Source: Escherichia phage moha
Strand: one strand, 5' to 3'
Length of the DNA stretch: 64,000 nt
Sequence record: MN850590.1
Part shown: one piece after another, positions 34,259 through 63,941 of the stretch
Numbering within the stretch: the first letter of the stretch is position 1
Layout of the letters: each line of letters starts with the position of its first letter
The notes under the pieces: generated by a model
The model's input: only the letters and a program-made list of their open reading frames with translations
Told to the model about the DNA's origin: nothing
The model's database searches: none
Program-made: the position numbers and the translations under genes

Positions 34259-34294
34259 GTTTACATAAGGATGATGGTGTGTTACTATCATCCT
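34259..34294 (+). promoter_or_regulatory. early-type promoter with the -10 region embedded in an inverted repeat
   Basis: GTTTAC at 34259-34264, TGTTACTAT -10, flanked by the 8-bp inverted repeat AGGATGAT / ATCATCCT. Confidence 0.55.
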
Positions 34295-34322
34295 ATCAAA
34301 TAAACAGCCTCAAGGAAATAAA

Positions 34323-34613: not shown

Positions 34614-34652
34614 GTTTACATCTTGATAGGACTATGTTATAGTAGTCCTATC
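34614..34652 (+). promoter_or_regulatory. promoter-early stem-loop (PeSL-type) cassette, copy 1
   Basis: GTTTAC, spacer, then GATAGGACTA-tgttatag-TAGTCCTATC: a perfect 10-bp inverted repeat around the TG-t-TATAGT -10. Confidence 0.65.
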
Positions 34653-34680
34653 AAAACAAATGAGTAAATGGAGAAATAAA

Positions 34681-36116: not shown

Positions 36117-36191
36117 GGCCCTGTAGCTCAATGGGAGAGCTGTCAGCTCATAACTGATAGGTAGCTGGATCGAAACCAGCCAGGGTCACCA
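36117..36191 (+). tRNA. tRNA with CAT anticodon (Met, or Ile2 if C34 is lysidinylated)
   Basis: Manual fold: acceptor GGCCCTG/CAGGGTC, D-stem GCTC/GAGC, anticodon stem GTCAG/CTGAT with loop CT-CAT-AA, T-stem GCTGG/CCAGC, discriminator A and encoded CCA. Confidence 0.8.
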
Positions 36192-36194
36192 ATC

Positions 36195-36271
<77 letters not shown>

Positions 36272-37549: not shown

Positions 37550-37578
37550 GTTTACTTCTTCTAAGGACATGATACTAT
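37550..37578 (+). promoter_or_regulatory. early-type promoter
   Basis: GTTTAC, spacer, TG-a-TACTAT, then the TAGACTTATCAA leader and AGAGGA Shine-Dalgarno. Confidence 0.6.
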
Positions 37579-37606
37579 AGACTTATCAACCATAGAGGAA
37601 AATGTT

Positions 37607-38110
37607 ATGAGTCTTTACACTGAACTGAATAAAAAATCTGAAGAATCTGCTGAAACTATTTTTAAAAACGTGCAAAAGCGTATTTTGGAAAAGATGTATG
37701 ATGCAGCATCTAAAGGTGAAAAATCTTGCCGGTTTCCGATGAGGTGTTCTTCTGATTTATGCGCAAATACTATTGAATGGCTGGAAAGTGAAGGTCTTAC
37801 GGTAGAGAAAAACCCGGCGACTTCTATTGACGGCGAATCATATATTAGTATTTCTTGGGATAAATCAAGGGTAGAAGAGAAAGATGGTGATTGGGTTGTA
37901 GATGTTAAAACTTCTGATGGTGGACGTTCTGTTGAAGTTTCGGCTGTAGTTAAAGGTACCCACGAACAAAGGACTTGGGGTTGGGGTGGTGAAGAAAAAG
38001 AAATTGTTCTTAGTGTGATTGCCAGGTCAACTAGTAATAAAATTGCACAAAGCATCATTGACGCTGCAATTGCTGAAGCAGAAAAAATTTGCAAAATTAA
38101 AAATAAATGA
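37607..38110 (+). CDS. hypothetical protein (167 aa)
   Basis: ORF with promoter and Shine-Dalgarno; preferred over the overlapping antisense ORF. Confidence 0.6.
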   Translation: MSLYTELNKKSEESAETIFKNVQKRILEKMYDAASKGEKSCRFPMRCSSDLCANTIEWLESEGLTVEKNPATSIDGESYISISWDKSRVEEKDGDWVVDVKTSDGGRSVEVSAVVKGTHEQRTWGWGGEEKEIVLSVIARSTSNKIAQSIIDAAIAEAEKICKIKNK

Positions 38111-38608: not shown

Positions 38609-38640
38609 TTTACAAACTCTTGAGAGCAGAGTATAATGCT
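38609..38640 (+). promoter_or_regulatory. sigma70-type promoter with the -10 inside an inverted repeat
   Basis: TTTACA, 17-bp spacer, TATAAT, with GAGAGCA / TGCTCTC arms flanking the -10. Confidence 0.6.
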
Positions 38641-38678
38641 CTCGTTGGATAATAAACCACCAATTGAAAGGTAATAAT

Positions 38679-39272
38679 ATGAACACACTGAAGAAACTTG
38701 TTGAATTCATCCGCACTAAACTTGGTACTGCTATGGCTAAAAATCTGACTGTCGAAGAACAGTATAACGCAGCTGCAGATAAGTTGATTACCCAAATCAA
38801 AGAACTAAAAACGGCTTCTGTTAAATCTATTAATGAAGAAAAACGTATTCGCGAACTTGTTAATGAAAAGAACAAGCAAGCCGCTTCTAAGGAACGTGAA
38901 ATTCGTAAGCTCCTGGCTGAAGGACAAGATGTTACCATGCATGCTAAGCTTGGTCTTCTGTATCGTCGAACTGCCGAACAACTTAATACAAAAGCTGACG
39001 GGTATGCCGCTATGCGAATTGAAATTGCTCGTAAGGTGGTTGAACTTGATGATGCTCGTCAGAATCTGGCAATCAAACTCGAATACATTCGTGAAACTCG
39101 AGCAGCCAATGCCCTTGGTATCTCTACGGCCGATGATGTAATTGAAATAGCTGCACTGACTAAGGTTGATATCGAAGACACTCTGACTCGTGTTGAAACG
39201 TTCAATGGCACTCCAGCCGGCGTCGAAACCACTTCTGCTGATGTACAAGAATATATTAACTCTTTGAAATAA
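38679..39272 (+). CDS. coiled-coil protein, possibly PspA/IM30-like (197 aa)
   Basis: Long heptad-rich helical sequence with an amphipathic N-terminus; assignment is by eye only. Confidence 0.4.
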
Positions 39273-39280
39273 AATAATAC

Positions 39281-39302
39281 GGAGGACTCCGGTCCTCCTT
39301 TT
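39281..39302 (+). terminator. rho-independent terminator
   Basis: GGAGGAC-tccg-GTCCTCC followed by TTTT. Confidence 0.7.
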
Positions 39303-39321
39303 GGATAATAAAGGAGTTAAC

Positions 39322-39924
39322 ATGCGAAACCAAAATAATGATATTGACTCAATGTTCGAAGAGTTCCGAGATAAGGTAAATCCACCTACGTCTTTAGTTG
39401 ATTCATTACGATATGTTGCAACCGGACGTAAATGGTACTGGTCGTCTTCTTATGAGACCACCGAGAAAACGGCTAGCCATAGCAGAAAATCTTTATTAGC
39501 CCCAGGTATTATGATTCATGATATCGGAGCTATTGCTAAACTAGTTGCAGACCATGATATTAGATTCACCGATTTCGTTGCTCCTACATGGTCTGTTTGT
39601 TGTTTAAACACTGAATGGGAATATATCAGCGAACGCTCTAAAGATTATTATGGTTTTAGAGATAAGCTTCTGAGGTCTAATATGTTTTATATCGATACAG
39701 AAGTTCTAGTCGATAATAAAAAATATTACTTTACGTTAATCATCGATTCTGAAACTATGTATGAAGGCAAGCCTTTGCTTAAAAGAGTTGATGCTTTAAG
39801 TGCTATTGATGCGCTTTATGAAACTATGGTTGTTAGTCCTAATTTCACTAACAATTTAATCCTTGAGCAATTTATTATGGAATGTAGAGAATATGTCAAA
39901 GCCAACCCTATACATGCCAAGTAA
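39322..39924 (+). CDS. hypothetical protein (200 aa)
   Basis: ATG after an AAGGAG Shine-Dalgarno. Confidence 0.55.
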   Translation: MRNQNNDIDSMFEEFRDKVNPPTSLVDSLRYVATGRKWYWSSSYETTEKTASHSRKSLLAPGIMIHDIGAIAKLVADHDIRFTDFVAPTWSVCCLNTEWEYISERSKDYYGFRDKLLRSNMFYIDTEVLVDNKKYYFTLIIDSETMYEGKPLLKRVDALSAIDALYETMVVSPNFTNNLILEQFIMECREYVKANPIHAK

Positions 39925-41182: not shown

Positions 41183-41221
41183 GTTTACAACAAGATAGGG
41201 CTATGTTATAGTAGTCCTATC
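41183..41221 (+). promoter_or_regulatory. PeSL-type cassette, copy 2
   Basis: GTTTAC, then GATAGGGCTA-tgttatag-TAGTCCTATC (one mismatch in the left arm). Confidence 0.6.
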
Positions 41222-41240
41222 AAAACAAATGGAGTCCACA

Positions 41241-42477: not shown

Positions 42478-42515
42478 GTTTACACAATTATAGGACTATG
42501 TTACAGTAGTCCTAT
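42478..42515 (+). promoter_or_regulatory. PeSL-type cassette, copy 3
   Basis: GTTTAC, then ATAGGACTA-tgttacag-TAGTCCTAT; both arms are complementary to each other. Confidence 0.6.
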
Positions 42516-42536
42516 TAAAAACATGAGGAGAATATT

Positions 42537-44690: not shown

Positions 44691-44724
44691 GTAATAAATA
44701 CCTCCTATAAACGTGGGAGGTATT

Positions 44725-45213
44725 ATGAATATATTTGAAATGCTTCGTAATGACGAAGGTCTTAGACTGACTTTATACAAAGACACTGAAGGCTTTTGGA
44801 CGATTGGCATTGGCCATTTAGTAACAAAGAATCCGTCTTTAGCCGTAGCTAAAGCTGAACTTGACAGAATGATCGGGCGTAAATGCAACGGTACAATTAC
44901 CCTTGATGAGGCTGAAAAGCTATTTAATGAAGACGTCGATAAAGCCGTTCGCGGAATCTTGGGTAATGCTAAACTTAAACCGGTATATGATTCTTTAGAT
45001 GCGGTTCGTCGATGTGCATTGGTCAATATGGTCTTCCAAATGGGTGTAGCAGGCGTCGCTGGTTTTACTAATTCTCTTCGTATGCTTCAACAGAAACGTT
45101 GGGATGAAGCGGCAGTAAATCTAGCCCAATCTAAATGGTATCGTCAGACACCTAATCGCGCGAAACGCGTAATCTCAACATTTAAAACAGGAACTTGGAA
45201 AGCGTATATATGA
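44725..45213 (+). CDS. e: endolysin (T4-type lysozyme)
   Basis: Translation [32 protein letters not shown]... is near-identical to T4 lysozyme; start taken at the ATG after a GGGAGG Shine-Dalgarno. Confidence 0.97.
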
Positions 45214-45491
45214 AAACATATAGTGAATTTTTATCAGAATCTATTCTTAACGAAGCTACTGACACATTTGCAACTAAGCTAGGTGCAGCTTTGGTTGAAG
45301 CCGAAAGTCTATTAGCACGTATTTCTGAACTTGCTAGTAAGATAGATACTCGCAAATTTGAACGTACCAGCGATATCGCTAAGCTTGAAGCCTTGTTACG
45401 TATGTGCGATAAACCGGACGAAATCGCTAAGAATGGCTCGCTAATGAAACAACGTCTTGAAAAATATATTTCAGGCGCTTCAGAAAAATAG
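45210..45491 (+). CDS. internal-protein-like protein with capsid-targeting leader (93 aa)
   Basis: Starts [10 protein letters not shown]; ATGA overlap with the e stop. Confidence 0.6.
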
Positions 45492-45492
45492 T

Positions 45493-45546
45493 GTTTACTT
45501 CCTCCAAGGACTTTGATACTATACATTCATCAACTACTTGGAGGAA
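45493..45546 (+). promoter_or_regulatory. early-type promoter with a Shine-Dalgarno-sequestering inverted repeat, upstream of denV
   Basis: GTTTAC, then left arm TTCCTCCAAG (45499-45508), TG-a-TACTAT -10, and right arm CTTGGAGGAA (45537-45546) containing the GGAGG Shine-Dalgarno. Confidence 0.6.
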
Positions 45547-45549
45547 ATT

Positions 45550-45963
45550 ATGACCCGTATCAATTTAACACTTGTTTCTGAACTGACCGACCAACATCTT
45601 ATGGCTGAGTATCGTGAATTACCACGCGTATTTGGTGCAGTCCGTAAACATGTTCAAAACGGTAAACGTGTAAAGGATTTTAAAATCTCTCCAACATTTA
45701 TCTTAGGCACAGGTCACGTAACATTCTTTTACGACAAACTCGAATTTTTACGTTTACGTCAAATCGAGCTAATCGCTGAATGCTTGAAACGTGGTTTCAA
45801 AATCAAGGACACGACTGTCCAGGATATTTCCGACATTCCTGTAGAATTTCGTAATAATTATGTCCCGTCCGAAGCGTCCATTGCGATAAGTCAAGCACGC
45901 TTAGATGAAAAAATTGCTCAACGTCCGACTTGGTACAAATACTATGGTAAATCAATTTACTAA
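45550..45963 (+). CDS. denV: endonuclease V (pyrimidine dimer DNA glycosylase)
   Basis: Translation [34 protein letters not shown]... is near-identical to T4 endonuclease V; 137 aa. Confidence 0.95.
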
Positions 45964-45969
45964 GGAAAA

Positions 45970-46230
45970 ATGAAAATGTATCAAGAATTTATCATTGAAG
46001 CAGATGCCAAAGGTCCTAAATTTAAAGTTAAAGCTTTCATTGGTGATGCGGAAGACTTTGGCTCATTAAAACGTAATGGGTATTTTTTCTTAGGTGGCGA
46101 TGGTAAAGAAATCAACACCTATGCAAAACGTAGTGAAATTGCTTATGTTGTAGCAAGTCCTAAAGTAGATGTTGACGATATTGGATACGATTTTAACAAC
46201 TTCGGAATTATTTCTGGCGGTAAAGCTTAA
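45970..46230 (+). CDS. internal-protein-like protein with capsid-targeting leader (86 aa)
   Basis: Starts MKMYQEFIIE. Confidence 0.55.
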   Translation: MKMYQEFIIEADAKGPKFKVKAFIGDAEDFGSLKRNGYFFLGGDGKEINTYAKRSEIAYVVASPKVDVDDIGYDFNNFGIISGGKA

Positions 46231-46233
46231 ATT

Positions 46234-46263
46234 GTTTACGCTTAAGTATTAATATGGTATAAT
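46234..46263 (+). promoter_or_regulatory. early-type promoter (GTTTAC, 18 bp, TG-g-TATAAT)
   Basis: Near-consensus extended -10 followed by the CTATCAAAACAAA leader. Confidence 0.6.
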
Positions 46264-46294
46264 TACTCTATCAAAACAAACAAGGAAACAAAAA

Positions 46295-46873
46295 ATGAAA
46301 ACATATAAAGAATTTATCGCCGAGGCCTTTGCAGGAAAAGCTCAAGGCATTAATAAGGACGAGTGGAATTATCGTGGCGGAAACGGCTTTGACCCTAAAA
46401 CTGCTCCACTTGAACGATATCTAGCCACAAAGGCTTCTGATTTTAAAGCCTTCGCTTGGGAAGGACTTCGCTGGCGTAACGATTTAAATATTGAAGTTGA
46501 CGGACTTAAATTTGCTCATATTGAAGATGTTGTTGCTAGTAACTTAGACGCAGCTTTTGTTAAAGCCGACAGTGACCTTCGTCGCTGGAATTTAAAACTG
46601 TTCTCTAAACAAAAAGGCCCGAAGTTTGTGCCTAAAGCAGGTAAATGGGTTATTGATAATAAATTAGCTAAGGCTGTCAACTACGCCGGTCTTGAATTTG
46701 CCAAGCATAAATCATCATGGAAAGGTCTTGATGCAATGGCTTTCCGTAAAGAATTTGCCGATGTTATGGCTAAAGGCGGCTTTAAGGCAGAAATAGATAC
46801 CTCTAAAGGTACGTTTAAGGACGCTAATGTTCAGTATGCTTACGCCGTTGCTAATGCGGCCCGTGGTAATTAA
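46295..46873 (+). CDS. internal protein III-like protein with capsid-targeting leader (192 aa)
   Basis: Starts MKTYKEFIAEA; similar in size to T4 IPIII (194 aa). Confidence 0.65.
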   Translation: MKTYKEFIAEAFAGKAQGINKDEWNYRGGNGFDPKTAPLERYLATKASDFKAFAWEGLRWRNDLNIEVDGLKFAHIEDVVASNLDAAFVKADSDLRRWNLKLFSKQKGPKFVPKAGKWVIDNKLAKAVNYAGLEFAKHKSSWKGLDAMAFRKEFADVMAKGGFKAEIDTSKGTFKDANVQYAYAVANAARGN

Positions 46874-46875
46874 TA

Positions 46876-46897
46876 AGGCCTAAGTATAGGCCTATTT
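46876..46897 (+). terminator. hairpin, putative weak terminator
   Basis: AGGCCTA-agta-TAGGCCT followed by ATTT. Confidence 0.35.
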
Positions 46898-47051
46898 ACA
46901 TTCAAATAAAATGGGAACAACCTGGACCTCATGATTCTATGAGGGATTCCCGCCAACCTGTAATAAGGTCGAGCCCAAGTGCGGTAATGGGTAAATACAG
47001 AAATGGACAATTCATGCGCCATGGAATGGCCCAACCTAAAAGAGAAACTAA

Positions 47052-47591
47052 ATGAGAACATTTTTAACCGGTCCTTATCTATCCCTGATGAATGCTTTTA
47101 CACACCATTCTGATGCTAGAGTAGAAGAAATTTGTAAGAACGGTTATGTCCCACCATTTGAAGACGTACTCAAGCAGTACTGTACACTTCGTTTAGACGG
47201 CGGCAGACAATCAGGTAAATCAATTGCTGTGACTAACTTTGCTGCTAATTGGCTGTATGATGGCGGAACAGTTATTGTTCTTTCTAATACTTCAGCTTAT
47301 GCTAAAATTTCTGCTGGCAACATTAAAAAAGAATTTTCTCGTTATTCTAGCGATGATATTCGATTCCGTTTATTTACTGATTCTGTTCGTAGTTTTATTG
47401 GCAATGAAGGTTCTAAATTCCGTGGATTAACGCTTTCTCGTATTCTGTATATAATTGACGAGCCTATTAAAGCTCCTGATATGGATAAGATTTACAATGT
47501 CCACATTAAAACAGTACAGCACTGCTGCAAAAGCAAATATTGCATCAGCGGTAATGCTCGTCCTCAATTTTTTGTGATTGGAATGCAATGA
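47052..47591 (+). CDS. P-loop NTPase-like hypothetical protein (179 aa)
   Basis: Walker A-like GGRQSGKS and Walker B-like ILYIIDEP. Confidence 0.5.
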   Translation: MRTFLTGPYLSLMNAFTHHSDARVEEICKNGYVPPFEDVLKQYCTLRLDGGRQSGKSIAVTNFAANWLYDGGTVIVLSNTSAYAKISAGNIKKEFSRYSSDDIRFRLFTDSVRSFIGNEGSKFRGLTLSRILYIIDEPIKAPDMDKIYNVHIKTVQHCCKSKYCISGNARPQFFVIGMQ

Positions 47592-47896
47592 TGACCACTA
47601 TTGAAGTTTTTGAGTATTGTTATAACAGCCCAGTATGCAATAAAAGGGCTCTTGTAGAAAATTATGAGATTTACCATTTTAAACCTAAACGATATCGTTT
47701 GACTAAAGGTCCGTTCGCAGGGCAGCAGGTTCTTTGTACTGCTCCTAATGCACGGTTGATGACTAGTATTCCGCATTTCAAAATGGAATTTATTGATGGG
47801 CCATTTAAGGGATTAATCACTCAAAGTTTAATGGCATTTAATTCCGACCCATTTTTGATTAAAGAAAAATCTTGGATAAATTTATTTTCTAATTGA
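47588..47896 (+). CDS. hypothetical protein (102 aa)
   Basis: ORF with start overlapping the upstream stop. Confidence 0.5.
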   Translation: MMTTIEVFEYCYNSPVCNKRALVENYEIYHFKPKRYRLTKGPFAGQQVLCTAPNARLMTSIPHFKMEFIDGPFKGLITQSLMAFNSDPFLIKEKSWINLFSN

Positions 47897-47902
47897 GGTT
47901 AT

Positions 47903-48265
47903 ATGAAAGCATATCAAATTCTTGAAGGTGCACATAAAGGCACTATTTATTTTGAAGACGGTACTCAAGCCCGGATTATTGTCTCTAAGACTTTTAAAGA
48001 AGACGCTATTGTAGACCCGGAAATTTTCTACGGTTTGAATGCCCGTGAAATTGAAATTGAACATCAACCTAAAGTTAAAATTGAAGGTGGTCAACACCTG
48101 AACGTTAACGTTCTGCGTCGCGAAACTCTGGAAGATGCAGTTAAGCATCCGGAAAAATATCCGCAGCTGACCATTCGTGTATCCGGTTATGCAGTTCGCT
48201 TTAACTCTCTGACTCCGGAACAGCAGCGCGACGTTATCGCTCGTACCTTTACTGAGAGTCTATAA
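47903..48265 (+). CDS. GrcA/YfiD-like autonomous glycyl radical cofactor
   Basis: 120-aa ORF with the glycyl-radical motif RVSGYAV near the C-terminus; the C-terminal roughly 60 codons are GC-rich with host-like codon choice. Confidence 0.8.
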
Positions 48266-48489
48266 TGGCTAAATTGATTATAGAAGGGTCTGAAGATGTT
48301 TTAAAATGTTTTGCCGCCTGGTTTAGTTGCTCAGGCGAGCAATCATTCACTGAAGCATTTAGAATGGGTGATATTACTGGAAACTATCCGACAACTGATA
48401 TCACTGTACGTGGATATGGTATTAATGAGCCTATCCAATTGGTCGAATATGACCTTGCCACCGATGAGGAAATTCCTTATGTCGATTGA
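48265..48489 (+). CDS. hypothetical protein (74 aa)
   Basis: TAATG overlap with the upstream gene. Confidence 0.5.
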   Translation: MAKLIIEGSEDVLKCFAAWFSCSGEQSFTEAFRMGDITGNYPTTDITVRGYGINEPIQLVEYDLATDEEIPYVD

Positions 48490-48745
48490 AGATATTAAAG
48501 GTTACAAACCGCACACCGATGACAAAATCGGTAAAGTGAACGCTATTAAAGATGCCGAAGTCCGTCTTGGATTGTTGTTTGATGCTCTGATTGAAGAAGC
48601 ATATATCTTGAAAGAAAATGAAACAGAGCAACAAACCAAAGAAGATATGGATGCAGTGCAGGCTCTTAAGTATGCTAAGCAACATCTAAAAGAAGCCAGC
48701 ATGTGGGCATGCCGTGCAGTATTTCGACCTGAGGAAAAATACTAG
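48479..48745 (+). CDS. hypothetical protein (88 aa)
   Basis: Start taken at the ATG overlapping the upstream stop; the longer ORF-track frame from 48311 is probably not translated. Confidence 0.45.
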   Translation: MSIEDIKGYKPHTDDKIGKVNAIKDAEVRLGLLFDALIEEAYILKENETEQQTKEDMDAVQALKYAKQHLKEASMWACRAVFRPEEKY

Positions 48746-48954
48746 TGAAAATTGAAAGTTTGCAAGAATTCCAACGTATCATTAGCGAAGCCTGTACCGG
48801 TTACCACAAATATTTGCTCGATGACCAGGTTGCTTGTCTTGAAGAAGGCGAAATGCAGTACGCTGTCCAGCGCCTTGAACAAGTGAAAGAGTTTTATCCT
48901 GCAATGGTAGAAATTTGTTCGATAGCTGGAAAACTCACACCATTCCAAGAATAA
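48745..48954 (+). CDS. hypothetical protein (69 aa, GTG start)
   Basis: GTG start preceded by GAGGAAAAA. Confidence 0.4.
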   Translation: MKIESLQEFQRIISEACTGYHKYLLDDQVACLEEGEMQYAVQRLEQVKEFYPAMVEICSIAGKLTPFQE

Positions 48955-48958
48955 AGTA

Positions 48959-49009
48959 GTTTACTTCTCCTCTAGTTGTGTTACTATAGACCTGTCAACT
49001 AGAGGAGAA
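48959..49009 (+). promoter_or_regulatory. early-type promoter with a 14-bp Shine-Dalgarno-sequestering inverted repeat, upstream of regB
   Basis: GTTTAC, left arm TTCTCCTCTAGTTG (48965-48978), TG-t-TACTAT -10, right arm CAACTAGAGGAGAA (48996-49009). Confidence 0.65.
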
Positions 49010-49015
49010 ATCAAA

Positions 49016-49474
49016 ATGACTATCAATTCAGACGTTTTTATCCGCCGTAATAAACTCCGTCGAATCTTTGAAACGGAGTTCCGCAAAATAAATGCCAGTA
49101 TAAAAGATGCTGCAAAGTCTCTTGGACTACCAGGCTTTCATATCAAGTATTCTCAACATCTCTTAGATCGTGCCATCCAGAGAGAAATAGATGAGAATTA
49201 CGTTTTTGAATTATTTCATAAAGTAAAAAATCATGTTAAAGAAGTTGCAGAATTTTTATCAATGCCGGCACGTCCAGATGTTGATGAAGATTTTGTCGAA
49301 GGTGTCGAATATCGCCCAGGCCGTTTAGAAATAACTGACGGAAATCTTTGGTTAGGACTTACAGTTTGTCGCGAAAATCCGGCATTCAAAATGAAGACTC
49401 TTCAATGTAGAATGGCTATTATTAACAGTAAACGACTACCAGGAAAAGCTTCTAAAGCAGTGATTAAAATCTAG
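49016..49474 (+). CDS. regB: RegB endoribonuclease
   Basis: 152-aa ORF (T4 RegB is 153 aa) recognisable as RegB, located between denV and tk. Confidence 0.8.
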   Translation: MTINSDVFIRRNKLRRIFETEFRKINASIKDAAKSLGLPGFHIKYSQHLLDRAIQREIDENYVFELFHKVKNHVKEVAEFLSMPARPDVDEDFVEGVEYRPGRLEITDGNLWLGLTVCRENPAFKMKTLQCRMAIINSKRLPGKASKAVIKI

Positions 49475-52156: not shown

Positions 52157-52190
52157 TAGCCCCTTCCGAAAGGTCGGGGCTTTTTGGCAT
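52157..52190 (+). terminator. rho-independent terminator (exact copy of the 34-nt element at 36945)
   Basis: TAGCCCCTTCCGAAAGGTCGGGGCTTTTTGGCAT. Confidence 0.8.
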
Positions 52191-52196
52191 CTATCA

Positions 52197-52248
52197 GTTT
52201 ACTTCTCCTCAGGTTGTGTTATAGTAAACCTTACTTACTAGAGGAGAA
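52197..52248 (+). promoter_or_regulatory. early-type promoter with a Shine-Dalgarno-complementary upstream arm
   Basis: GTTTAC, then TTCTCCTC..., TG-t-TATAGT, and ...GAGGAGAA. Confidence 0.55.
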
Positions 52249-52252
52249 CGTT

Positions 52253-52432
52253 ATGTCACGTAAAGAAAAAATTTCTAAGTTAATGTTTTTGATTGAAGAG
52301 TACGCTAATGCGGTATCTGATTGGGAAAATGCTCATGGTTGCGAAGATGGAGACATCGACATTAACAGAGCTATGAAAAAGATGGCTGACACCCACACCG
52401 AATTGCAAATGTATGTTAACGAGATTATGTGA
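52253..52432 (+). CDS. hypothetical small protein (59 aa)
   Basis: ATG after GAGGAGAACG; the ORF track start (52184) would precede the promoter. Confidence 0.45.
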   Translation: MSRKEKISKLMFLIEEYANAVSDWENAHGCEDGDIDINRAMKKMADTHTELQMYVNEIM

Positions 52433-52649: not shown

Positions 52650-52686
52650 TTTACAACTTGATAGGACTATGTTATAGTAGTCCTAT
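52649..52686 (+). promoter_or_regulatory. PeSL-type cassette, copy 4
   Basis: GTTTAC, then GATAGGACTA-tgttatag-TAGTCCTATC; identical to copy 1. Confidence 0.65.
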
Positions 52687-52914
52687 CAAAACAAATGGAG
52701 AACAAAATGAAACTTTTGCTTATCGCTTATGTTGTAGTACAATACAATTATCCGATGTTTACGTATAACATGGTAAATGGTGTAATGAATCTTATTGAAG
52801 CGAGTATGGTAAAATGACCTGTGAAATGGATCTTATTTAATTTTTATAGAAATCAGGTTGATGCTCGTCAGAATGATTTGGTGAATTTTGTTGAAACTTT
52901 AATTGGTGAATAAT

Positions 52915-53928: not shown

Positions 53929-54914
53929 TGAAAACAATTGTGAAAACTTATTTTGGTAGCCACCTTTATGGAACGTCTACCCCAGAATCTGACGTTGATT
54001 TTAAAGAAATTTATGTCCCTCATGCTCGTGATATCTTGACCGGTAACGTTAAAGAACACATGAGCAAGAACACGAATAACACATCTTCTAAGAACACAAA
54101 AGACGACGTGGACCATGAGTTGTATAGTCTCAAATATTTCTTTAAACTAGCTGCGGATGGTGAAACCGTCGCATTAGATATGCTTCACACTCCACAAAGT
54201 CTAGTAGTTAAATCTGATTTGCCTGATGTATGGAAGTATATTCAAGATAACAGGTCTCGTTTCTATACCACTAACATGAAATCTTATTTAGGGTATGTCC
54301 GTAAGCAAGCTTCTAAATACGGTGTCAAGGGTTCTCGACTGGCTGTTCTTCGTCAAGCCCTTAAACGTTCTAATGAATGGGGACAATACTTTGATAATGG
54401 TGCAGTAATTCGTTTATCACATATGAAGAATGTTCTGCCTGTAGGTGAATTTGCTTCGTGGGTTGAAACAGAAAACGAGAAAACAGGTAAGCAAACATTC
54501 TATAATCTGTTAGACCGTAAATTCCAAGATACGTTAACCAATAAAGAGTTCAATGCCATCCTGGTTAAACTGGAAGAGAACTACGGTGAACGTGCTCGTA
54601 AGGCAGAAGCCAACGAAGGTATTGACTGGAAAGCATTGAGTCATGCATGTCGTGGTGGACTTCAACTATTGGAAATTTACAAAACCGGCGACCTGGTTTA
54701 CCCACTTCAGGATGCTCCATTTATTCTCGATGTTAAGCTTGGTAAACATACGTTTAAAACTGTACAAGAATTCCTAGAAGATATCGTTGACCAAGTTGAA
54801 CAAGCATCAGAACAAGCCGCTAAGAACGGTATGCAACAAAAAGTAGATATGAGTTTCTGGGATGATTTCCTTGAGCAAGTCTATCTCGAAAATCATAATT
54901 CTTACTATAAATAA
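53925..54914 (+). CDS. nucleotidyltransferase-fold (Pol-beta superfamily) protein (329 aa)
   Basis: N-terminal YFGSHLYGTSTPESDVDF matches the hG[GS]x(9-13)Dh[DE] nucleotidyltransferase signature; ATGA overlap with the upstream gene. Confidence 0.55.
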   Translation: MMKTIVKTYFGSHLYGTSTPESDVDFKEIYVPHARDILTGNVKEHMSKNTNNTSSKNTKDDVDHELYSLKYFFKLAADGETVALDMLHTPQSLVVKSDLPDVWKYIQDNRSRFYTTNMKSYLGYVRKQASKYGVKGSRLAVLRQALKRSNEWGQYFDNGAVIRLSHMKNVLPVGEFASWVETENEKTGKQTFYNLLDRKFQDTLTNKEFNAILVKLEENYGERARKAEANEGIDWKALSHACRGGLQLLEIYKTGDLVYPLQDAPFILDVKLGKHTFKTVQEFLEDIVDQVEQASEQAAKNGMQQKVDMSFWDDFLEQVYLENHNSYYK

Positions 54915-54945
54915 ATAGATAAATAACCCTTAACTCGAGGTAAAT

Positions 54946-55212
54946 ATGAAAAAATTAGTAATTGGTTTATTCGCAGTAATGATGGCATTCTCTGTTGGTG
55001 CTACCACAGGTGCAGGAGCTGGTGGTAACCAGTCTTCTGGGCCTTCCAATGGTTCGGTAAATGCATCACATTCTCAGGGTATTGAGAACATTAAATCAAG
55101 CTATATTAATAGCACGGCCGGACAAGCAACTGAAGCATGGTCAAAGGGTCGAGTAGTTACTCGCTCCGTATTCTGTGATATGCCTAATTATGTTGCTAAG
55201 TGCGATAAGTAA
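54946..55212 (+). CDS. secreted glycine/serine-rich small protein (88 aa)
   Basis: Signal peptide and a C-terminal cysteine pair; followed by a terminator. Confidence 0.55.
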   Translation: MKKLVIGLFAVMMAFSVGATTGAGAGGNQSSGPSNGSVNASHSQGIENIKSSYINSTAGQATEAWSKGRVVTRSVFCDMPNYVAKCDK

Positions 55213-57018: not shown

Positions 57019-57047
57019 GTTTACAAGGTCTATGGTTATGTTATTAT
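57019..57047 (+). promoter_or_regulatory. early-type promoter
   Basis: GTTTAC, spacer, TG-t-TATTAT, followed by the TAGACCTATCAACTACTGGAGG leader. Confidence 0.55.
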
Positions 57048-57074
57048 AGACCTATCAACTACTGGAGGTAAAAC

Positions 57075-58858: not shown

Positions 58859-58920
58859 AATGAATGCATTAAAATCATAAAACAGTTTACAACCAAGGAT
58901 GGTTGGAGTATAATAAATCT
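58859..58920 (+). repeat. 62-bp repeat, copy A (gene 3' end plus early promoter)
   Basis: AATGAATGCATTAAAATCATAAAA-c-AGTTTACAACCAAGGATGGTTGGAGTATAAT-a-AATCT; two mismatches against copy B; includes GTTTAC and TATAAT. Confidence 0.8.
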
Positions 58921-59870: not shown

Positions 59871-59910
59871 AATAGTTTACAACCAAGGATGGTTGGAGTA
59901 TAATGAATCT
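59849..59910 (+). repeat. 62-bp repeat, copy B
   Basis: Near-identical to 58859-58920; spans the 3' end of the 58941-59870 ORF and the promoter of the next gene. Confidence 0.8.
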
Positions 59911-63430: not shown

Positions 63431-63462
63431 TATAAATACCCTTATCTATATATGGTAAGGGT
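63431..63462 (+). promoter_or_regulatory. gene 49 late promoter plus Shine-Dalgarno-sequestering hairpin
   Basis: TATAAATA at 63431-63438, immediately followed by ACCCTTA (63438-63444), which pairs with TAAGGGT (63456-63462) containing the Shine-Dalgarno. Confidence 0.7.
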
Positions 63463-63467
63463 TTATT

Positions 63468-63941
63468 ATGTTATTATCTGGCAAATTATACAAAGAAGAA
63501 AAACAAAAATTTTATGATGCACAGAATGGTAAGTGTCCTATTTGCCACCGTGAATTAGACTCTGATGTTCAAGGTAACCATCTTGACCACGACCACGAAT
63601 TAAACGGGCCAAAAGCCGGTAGAGTTCGTGGATTACTCTGTAATCTGTGCAACGCAGCAGAAGGCCAAATGAAGCATAAGTTCAATCGTTCCGGTCTTAA
63701 AGGACGTGATGTTGACTACCTCGAATGGCTTGAAGCTCTTCTTGCTTATTTGAAACAAGATTATTCTGATAATAATATCCATCCTAATTTTGTTCCAGAC
63801 AAAACTAAAGAGTTCTCAAGACTAGGTAAAGAGGAAATGATGGCTGAGATGCTTCAAAGAGGATTTGAATATAATGAATCTGACACCAAAACACAGTTAA
63901 TAGCTTCATTTAAGAAGCAACTTAGAAAGAGTTTAAAATGA
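63468..63941 (+). CDS. 49: endonuclease VII (Holliday junction resolvase)
   Basis: 157-aa ORF; translation MLLSGKLYKEEKQKFYDAQNGKCPICHRELDSDVQGNHLDHDHELNG... is near-identical to T4 gp49. Confidence 0.95.
   Translation: MLLSGKLYKEEKQKFYDAQNGKCPICHRELDSDVQGNHLDHDHELNGPKAGRVRGLLCNLCNAAEGQMKHKFNRSGLKGRDVDYLEWLEALLAYLKQDYSDNNIHPNFVPDKTKEFSRLGKEEMMAEMLQRGFEYNESDTKTQLIASFKKQLRKSLK

Follow-up and report, generated by a model that had tools for sequence, protein, structure and literature searches.

Predicted Shine-Dalgarno-masking hairpins built into early promoters of Escherichia phage moha and the probable promoter-gated translation of some immediate-early genes, denV and regB among them

The DNA analysed is a 64,000-nt stretch of Escherichia phage moha (sequence record MN850590.1; one strand, 5' to 3'), the whole of which is called the window below. 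Upstream of its genes denV and regB, a segment of the early promoter is complementary to the Shine-Dalgarno (SD) region of the gene that the promoter serves. The SD is predicted to be masked in transcripts that read through from upstream and open in transcripts that begin at the local promoter. Promoter-gated translation of a subset of immediate-early genes is the probable meaning of this arrangement, and the support for gating comes from folding and comparison. The phage is a T-even phage of the RB69 type (Mosigvirus); several phages of E. coli and Shigella are about 97% identical to the window, and T4 is about 87% identical to it over the shared parts. The plus strand is the direction of early transcription.

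Early-promoter hairpins at denV and regB

An original prediction, made from the sequence alone, placed reverse complements of the ribosome-binding site between the -35 and -10 elements of denV, regB, the open reading frame (ORF) at 52253, e and gene 49. All sequences quoted in it were found in the window by direct check. Exact inverted repeats join the -35/-10 spacer to the SD at denV (10 bp), regB (14 bp) and ORF 52253 (8 bp). The placement between the two elements is correct for these three genes and not for e and gene 49, which have late promoters (TATAAATA-like) without a -35. A fourth early-promoter case, absent from the prediction, was found at ORF 37607. The gating promoters of the four genes are of the early type, GTTTAC-N17/18-TAnnnT, not of the late type (TATAAATA, gp55). 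Their parts are as follows.

45493-45522 (+): denV early promoter, from the sequence and a promoter scan; -35 GTTTAC at 45493-45498, 18-nt spacer, TGn, -10 TACTAT at 45517-45522
45499-45508 (+): denV 5' arm TTCCTCCAAG (anti-SD), within the promoter spacer; pairs with 45537-45546 in the minimum free energy (MFE) and centroid structures
near 45529 (+): denV +1, predicted from the -10 position
45537-45546 (+): denV 3' arm CTTGGAGGAA, including the SD GGAGG at 45540-45544; ATG at 45550
45550-45963 (+): denV coding sequence (CDS), 137 aa, endonuclease V; homologues annotated denV
48959-48987 (+): regB early promoter; -35 GTTTAC at 48959-48964, 17-nt spacer, -10 TACTAT at 48982-48987
48965-48978 (+): regB 5' arm TTCTCCTCTAGTTG, within the spacer; 14-bp perfect helix
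near 48994 (+): regB +1, predicted from the -10 position
48996-49009 (+): regB 3' arm CAACTAGAGGAGAA, including the SD and GGAG; ATG at 49016
49016-49474 (+): regB CDS, 152 aa, GGAG-specific endoribonuclease; homologues annotated RegB
52197-52248 (+): promoter and hairpin of ORF 52253; GTTTAC at 52197-52202, -10 TATAGT at 52220-52225; CDS 52253-52432
52203-52210 and 52241-52248 (+): 5' arm TTCTCCTC and 3' arm GAGGAGAA of ORF 52253
37550-37600 (+): promoter and hairpin of ORF 37607; GTTTAC at 37550-37555, -10 TACTAT at 37573-37578; CDS 37607-38110
37556-37563 and 37593-37600 (+): 5' arm TTCTTCTA and 3' arm TAGAGGAA of ORF 37607; 8 bp with one G-U

Start sites were predicted from the -10 position throughout, not mapped; on this basis the +1 of the window cases sits 13-17 nt 3' of the end of the 5' arm. 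Each leader was folded twice, from 12 nt upstream of the -35 (long leader) and from the predicted +1 (short leader). Stability was expressed as a z score against 200 dinucleotide shuffles per leader.

denV long leader: MFE -17.8 kcal/mol, z -4.18
regB long leader: MFE -21.6 kcal/mol, z -4.45
e leader: MFE -16.3 kcal/mol, z -4.84
gene 49 leader: MFE -12.8 kcal/mol, z -2.48
ORF 52253 long leader: MFE -14.2 kcal/mol, z -1.33
ORF 37607 long leader: MFE -12.1 kcal/mol, z -1.45

All four early-promoter cases have, in the long leader, an SD that pairs with the promoter segment at P = 1.00 (unpaired 0.00). In the short leaders the SD is unpaired with a probability of 0.5-0.6 (denV 0.50), and the MFE of the three tested (denV, regB and ORF 52253) is 0 to -2.5 kcal/mol. 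Folding of read-through and promoter-proximal leaders, the check proposed with the prediction, gave the anticipated result for denV and regB: the SD is masked in the long form and open in the short form. The comparison with shuffled controls came out in favour of denV and regB (z < -4), e and gene 49, and not of ORF 52253 and ORF 37607. Only 0-1 of 200 shuffles match the stability of denV or regB, whose arms reach 5-6 bp past the SD core and whose helices equal or exceed the window's e hairpin (-16.3 kcal/mol) in stability.

A terminator scan found none between the upstream genes and the denV or regB promoter, and read-through into both genes is therefore expected. The same scan recorded no intrinsic terminator at 45499-45546 or 48965-49009. 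Neither helix is followed by a U-run; the 3' flanks are A-rich, AAUUAUG and AUCAAAAUG. A scan of the whole window with Rfam 15 at gathering score returned two tRNAs and nothing else, with no curated RNA family at the hairpins.

Conservation and extent of the pairing

The comparative data are the strongest part of the case. Homologues of regB were drawn from IMG/VR and GenBank; those of at least seven lineages keep complementarity to the SD, with at least eight different arm pairs. The pairs (5' arm/3' arm) are as follows.

RB69-like phages: CTAGTTG/CAACTAG
T4: CTTGACTG/CAGTTAAG; in a longer form TTTTCCTCTTGACTG ... CAGTTAAGAGGAGAA, 15 bp with two G-U
lineage L011: CTTTATG/CATAAAG
Citrobacter CF1-like phages: TGTAAG/CTTACA
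lineage L014: a pair of its own
also recorded among the homologues: UUUCCUU/AAGGAGA, plus an inner stem
Kosakonia phage 305 (Kanagawavirus): ATCTCCTTTTAGT/ACTAAAAGGAGAT
Serratia phage X20 (Winklervirus): ATCCTCATTTG/CAAATGAGGAT
phage CUA3: ATCTCCTGTAG/CTACAGGAGAT

RNAalifold on a MAFFT alignment of ten regB leaders recovered only a 7-bp anti-SD/SD core, as indels had shifted the arms. Because the alignment put the arms out of register, duplex energies of cognate and non-cognate pairs were used for regB and denV. The regB 5' segment pairs much better with the site of its own lineage than with a foreign one (for instance -23.4 vs -15.2 kcal/mol for the window phage against T4). Among 32 distinct T4-like denV leaders, the cognate mean is -14.8 kcal/mol and the non-cognate mean -9.4 kcal/mol (permutation p < 5e-5).

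About 11 distinct arm pairs were found among the denV homologues, in two architectures.

5' arm in the spacer: window phage; T4, arranged as GTTTAC-A-TCTCCTGTAG ... CTACAGGAGA; ATCTCCGTTTG/CAAACGGAGAT; TCTCCTGTG/CACAGGAGA
5' arm over the -10, ending at about +1: TAGTGTTCTC/GAGAACACTA; GATGTCTTCC/GGAGGACATC; ATGTCCTCCTA/TAGGAGGACAT
further pairs of the second architecture: ATAGTAGCCT/AGGCTACTAT; ATTGTCCT/AGGACAAT

In unconstrained folds the SD pairs with an arm ending at -17 to +2 of the predicted +1 in 27 of 29 denV leaders. Judged from these folds, the conserved trait is an SD paired to a segment that lies outside the predicted local transcript, and neither a fixed sequence nor a fixed position. 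The relatives of ORF 52253 and ORF 37607, at 91-100% identity, are too close for a covariation test; partial pairing is kept in one relative of ORF 37607 (L100).

The regB leader of phage CUA3 (L109) carries nearly the same cassette as T4 denV (L001, 8357-8420), GTTTAC-ATCTCCTGTAGG...TACTATAGACCTATCAACTACAGGAGAT. Promoter, anti-SD arm and SD seem to travel between genes as one unit.

The extent of the feature was assessed in T4 over 150 kb of the reference, with 31 early-promoter-proximal genes. Nine of the 31 duplexes are at or below -12 kcal/mol, where spacer shuffles give 0.65 expected and none of 200 shuffles reaches nine; the cognate vs non-cognate test gave p < 1e-4. In T4 folds the SD is masked at motB.2, modB, nrdC.8, regB, denV, alt.-3, alc and ndd.4, and more weakly at mrh.2, mobD.5 and 30.8 (in total 9-11 of 31). 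At nrdC.8 the T4 spacer pairs with the SD, whereas the window homologue, ORF 57075, has a hairpin straddling the -10 and, outside it, a helix in which the SD is paired to bases upstream of the -35.

Scanning of the window for a T4-type early promoter followed by an SD and an ORF gave 22 promoters on the plus strand, 20 at a stricter score. The SD is paired to a promoter segment at four of these 20-22, namely denV, regB, ORF 52253 and ORF 37607. At the promoters at 34615 and 57020, folding pairs the SD with sequence upstream of the -35. Duplexes between promoter and ribosome site at or below -12 kcal/mol occur at three of 20 promoters (0.41 expected from spacer shuffles, p about 0.005).

Many arms hold G-U pairs, which would become A-C mismatches in DNA and on the opposite strand. 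Arms with such pairs gain 5-10 kcal/mol in the sense fold over the antisense fold, and the two strands are alike where the arms are all Watson-Crick; the comparison is partly biased, as the T4 subset was picked on sense-strand energy. The G-U pairs are suggestive, and only suggestive, of selection acting on the sense RNA.

A conserved motif of early leaders just 5' of the SD, CAACTAC, is complementary to the likewise conserved extended -10, GTGGT(A), of the same promoters. This complementarity occurs at T4 nrdC.8 and ndd.4 (L105, L106) and in the window leaders at 1804, 38111, 45494 and 57020. RNA pairing might account for some of the 'extra consensus' seen in T4 early promoters.

Proposed mechanism, known systems and alternative explanations

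In the proposed mechanism the 5' arm would occupy a sigma-70-type early promoter, either in the spacer between -35 and -10, where sequence is unconstrained, or (in some relatives) across the -10 with its end at +1, and the 3' arm would be the gene's own SD region. A polymerase arriving from an upstream promoter, by delayed-early or middle read-through or late, would copy both arms. The 5' arm would be made about 35 nt ahead of the 3' arm, and the nascent RNA would close into a helix of 10-14 bp once the SD emerges, excluding the 30S subunit. A local transcript would start 3' of the 5' arm, carry an open leader of about 20-25 nt and be translated. T4 early promoters are shut off 2-3 min after infection, while middle RNA would go on being made as early transcripts are extended. 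Production of DenV, RegB and a small number of further proteins would accordingly last only while their own early promoters fire. As RegB is unable to cut a structured GGAG, the masked SD on long RNA would also be shielded from it, as a by-product. In this model we infer where transcripts start, whether and in what amount read-through RNA is made, and how translation is affected.

Several points weigh against this model or narrow its reach. The feature is limited to a minority of early promoters. Over all 20-22 window promoters cognate pairing is not better than non-cognate pairing (p = 0.09-0.19), and with four positive promoters among them the claim of a general design in the original prediction fails; its extension to early genes is supported for a subset with early promoters that includes denV and regB. 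What the window-wide test speaks against is generality; it does not call the four positive cases into question. The hairpins of ORF 52253 and ORF 37607 are no more stable than shuffles (z about -1.4), and SD masking at these two genes would be thermodynamically marginal. The central claim, that read-through masks the SD and local transcripts lack the 5' arm, is strongly backed by folding and comparison at denV and regB and weakly at these two ORFs. The promoter of ORF 52253 is moreover preceded by an intrinsic terminator, which would already limit read-through there. One relative of ORF 37607 (L098) has another promoter and an unpaired SD, and the feature is lacking in the most distant RegB homologue (L017, 40% identity) and in the denV homologues of jumbo phages. 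Since CUA3 regB carries the arms of T4 denV, part of the apparent covariation may be cassette replacement, not stepwise compensation. A ribosome terminating 7-10 nt upstream could also open the helix transiently.

Two of these points have details of their own. The terminator before ORF 52253 is strong (CCCCTTCCGAAAGGTCGGGGCTTTTT, at about 52160-52185) and lies directly upstream of the promoter; this gene would be guarded from upstream transcription twice, by terminator and SD mask. In the jumbo-phage denV leaders (L040, L043, L047 and L048; phage contigs of 345-380 kb) a terminator-like hairpin holds the -35 TTGAC in its stem (AAAAGGGTTGACTTCGGTCAGCCCTTTTT) and is followed by TATAAT. The SD is unpaired in these leaders, which join terminator and promoter in another way.

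The closest known system is that of the T4 e, soc, 49 and I-TevI leaders (McPheeters et al. 1986, per PMC3014915). There too a hairpin sequesters the SD on transcripts started upstream, and a promoter in or next to the hairpin starts translated transcripts without the 5' arm. The T4 e class differs in having late promoters (gp55, TATAAATA) and in delaying translation until late, whereas denV and regB have a sigma-70-type early promoter with the arm in the -35/-10 spacer, and the proposed logic is the opposite, translation being confined to the immediate-early burst. Genes regulated by such masking 'are all late genes' (Edgell, Gibb and Belfort 2010). The leaders of homing endonucleases (I-TevI/II/III, segB, Aeh1 mobE) likewise differ in that their promoters are late or middle and none is early; the rationale given for them is protection of intron splicing or limitation of the nuclease. 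The arrangement at denV and regB would be a variant of a known mechanism, a known switch newly placed in sigma-70 early promoters with reversed timing. A literature search for T4 early leaders studied by ribosome profiling or structure probing gave nothing relevant. The abstract of Valerie et al. 1986 reportedly mentions potential stem-loops before ipIII, ipII, denV and orf61.9 (later regB). The denV and regB structures may have been seen earlier, even if without an interpretation as SD gating.

PeSL (promoter-early stem-loop) elements of T4-type phages (Arbiol et al. 2010, PMC2839356; Comeau et al. 2014, PMC4122927) share with the present cases a strong early promoter, a stem-loop between the -35 and -10 or over the -10, and a following SD and ATG, and they form a repeated, apparently mobile unit in hyperplastic regions. 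The window cases have this layout of promoter, stem-loop and SD/ATG. Repetition and shuffling are also seen, in the cassette of T4 denV and CUA3 regB, at four window sites and in the altered order of denV and internal-protein genes. PeSL stem-loops differ in that the published accounts make them terminators or attenuators as well as substrates of recombination and treat the SD as an element apart, farther downstream. In denV and regB, by contrast, the SD itself forms the 3' arm, no U-tract is present and the SD pairing is conserved across lineages. The PeSL papers draw no connection between stem-loop and SD (PMC2839356, PMC4122927).

In a second, commoner class of hairpin in the window the spacer pairs with the bases that are transcribed first, so that the loop contains the -10 and the SD stays free, for example GATAGGACTA-TGTTATAG-TAGTCCTATC. 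Seven such SD-free promoter hairpins resemble the PeSL stem-loops of Arbiol et al. 2010, and none is followed by a U-run. They lie at the following positions.

34259-34305: SD-free promoter hairpin
34614-34669: SD-free promoter hairpin
38622-38644: SD-free promoter hairpin
41194-41222: SD-free promoter hairpin
42490-42517: SD-free promoter hairpin
52658-52689: SD-free promoter hairpin
57026-57054: SD-free promoter hairpin

A near-identical cassette is present at four promoters (34615, 41184, 42479 and 52650). The early promoters at 58890-58906 and 59880-59896 have identical spacers, each with a hairpin wholly within the spacer (CAACCA-AGGA-TGGTTG).

That the denV and regB hairpins are ordinary PeSL stem-loops, which attenuate or terminate upstream transcription and supply homology for modular shuffling while overlapping the SD incidentally, is considered unlikely. 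Such placements have been described together with a terminator-like effect of one RB49 stem-loop (PMC2839356), seven other window promoters have hairpins that straddle the -10 clear of the SD, one promoter/arm cassette stands before different genes (T4 denV, CUA3 regB), and the gene order near denV is unlike that of T4. The denV and regB helices, however, run into A-rich sequence without a U-run and were missed by the terminator scan, and the G-U pairs point to a constraint on RNA, not on DNA. A helix lacking a U-tract might still attenuate transcription. In every lineage with the pairing the SD serves as 3' arm, and it is the 5' arm that varies in position and sequence; a constant SD target with a shifting 5' arm fits selection on SD masking, not on a terminator or a recombination site. 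Chance complementarity between purine-rich SDs and pyrimidine runs in AT-rich intergenic DNA is highly improbable as a general account. It would suit the two short cases, with 8-bp arms, 30-nt loops and no more stability than shuffles, and anti-SD spacers do pair fairly stably with non-cognate SDs as well. Against it stand the z scores of denV and regB (below -4, with 0-1 of 200 shuffles as stable), their arms running 5-6 bp beyond the SD core, the recurrence of the pairing with different sequences in many lineages, and the T4 count of 9 of 31 against 0.65 expected. On the comparative data chance is effectively refuted for denV and regB, not for ORFs 52253 and 37607.

Two further explanations accept the helix and assign it another effect. 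The hairpin might mainly shield the GGAG of the SD from RegB on long polycistronic transcripts and so stabilise the message, with loss of translation as a side effect; this is distinctly unlikely. RegB does cut SD GGAG, its own included, and is inhibited by structure (PMC3014915, PMC1702504), and GGAG is present in the 3' arms of regB, denV and ORF 52253. Yet some masked SDs contain neither GGAG nor GGAU (ORF 37607 GAGGAA, T4 alt.-3 GAGGAA, Serratia X20 regB GAGGAT), T4 denV is already RegB-resistant through its 3' context, and a helix that hides the SD blocks initiation regardless of RegB. Translational coupling, in which a ribosome terminating 7-10 nt before the 5' arm opens the SD and the downstream gene is coupled, not switched off, is improbable. 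The gap between the upstream stop codon and the 5' arm is 7 nt at denV and 10 nt at regB, and the SD core forms the outermost pairs of the helix, the first that a terminating ribosome would open. The same spacing, however, is found at e (7 nt) and gene 49 (9 nt), which are strongly repressed on early transcripts according to T4 reviews; the upstream stop is more than 50 nt away at ORF 37607 and ORF 52253, and where the 5' arm lies over the -10, about 30 nt separate it from the stop. Promoter-gated translation through SD masking remains the reading preferred here.

Autoregulation by RegB acts on the same GGAG-containing SD of regB, where T4 RegB cleaves its own mRNA. It differs in that cleavage occurs in trans on the open short transcript, and the hairpin acts in cis on long transcripts, on which it should prevent cleavage because structure blocks RegB. 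The consensus of RegB sites is GGAGRAYARAA, and C is never found at position 9 of cleaved sites (Durand et al. 2006). The SD context of the window regB (49003-49013), GGAGAAATCAA, has C at position 9; close relatives, GGAGAAATAAA, have A there. From this sequence, self-cleavage of regB mRNA may be weaker in the window phage.

Late-promoter hairpins, gene order and significance

The hairpins at e and gene 49 in the window are the known late-promoter version of the switch.

44698-44723 (+): gene e (lysozyme) hairpin; arms ATACCTCC at 44698-44705 and GGAGGTAT at 44716-44723; late-promoter-like element TATAAACG in the loop; ATG at 44725
63431-63462 (+): gene 49 hairpin; TATAAATA at 63431-63438, ACCCTTA at 63438-63444, TAAGGGT at 63456-63462; ATG at 63468

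The e arms of the original prediction are present, two bases from where it had placed them, and its description of e and 49 as documented T4 cases is borne out by PMC3014915, which covers both. The T4 e hairpin is documented there to lower lysozyme synthesis about 100-fold, and gene 49 is among the known cases (PMC3014915).

A further late-type SD mask of the same design as e and gene 49 precedes the gene at 54946-55212: UAUCUCGA (54882-54889) pairs with the SD-containing UCGAGGUA (54935-54942), and the loop of this hairpin (54882-54942) holds the late promoter TATAAATA at 54906-54913, from which late transcripts would lack the 5' arm. At the gene starting at 39322 a pairing is predicted between the SD, AAGGAG, and TTAACTCTTT, which lies about 45 nt farther upstream (39250-39321). 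This long-range helix encloses an intrinsic terminator, GGAGGAC-UCCG-GUCCUCC-UUUU, with no evident promoter between the arms.

In this part of the window the genes follow one another as nudE, e, one internal-protein gene, denV, a further two internal-protein genes, vs.8 to vs.3 and regB. The T4 locus differs, with the order e, ipIII, ipII, denV. Of the internal-head-protein genes, one (45213-45491, phrog_3499) separates e from denV and another two lie 3' of denV (locus 45210-46873), unlike T4, in which ipIII and ipII precede denV. ORF 52253 is the homologue of RB69 mobD.2a. A stretch of about 160 nt (46894-47051) between a terminator-like hairpin (46876-46893) and the vs.8 homologue is without a plus-strand ORF; it is fairly GC-rich, is overlapped by a 63-aa minus-strand ORF and has no Rfam match. 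The genes for tRNA-Met (CAT) and tRNA-Arg (TCT) are adjacent on the plus strand at 36117-36271.

It is possible, as a tentative generalisation, that promoter-gated translation forms a conserved layer acting on the immediate-early genes of T-even phages, with promoter, arm and SD as a mobile unit. If so, an anti-SD arm would be concealed, within the spacer or across the -10, at about a fifth (window phage) to a third (T4) of the early promoters, and gated genes, among them the host-takeover functions regB, alc, modB and ndd.4, would be translatable only from the transcript of their own promoter. This would help to explain the abrupt halt of many early proteins after promoter shut-off despite ongoing read-through RNA. 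Part of the T4 early-promoter 'extra consensus' would then be a constraint at the RNA level, not polymerase contact, and the otherwise unconstrained -35/-10 spacer would gain a function. A subset of PeSL stem-loops would be recast as translational switches, and parts of about 55 nt would be available to synthetic biology as compact, portable elements for isoform-specific translation. For the phages themselves, promoter-embedded SD masking would extend beyond the delay of late genes to the confinement of dose-sensitive early proteins, such as an RNase and a transcription inhibitor, to the first minutes of infection.

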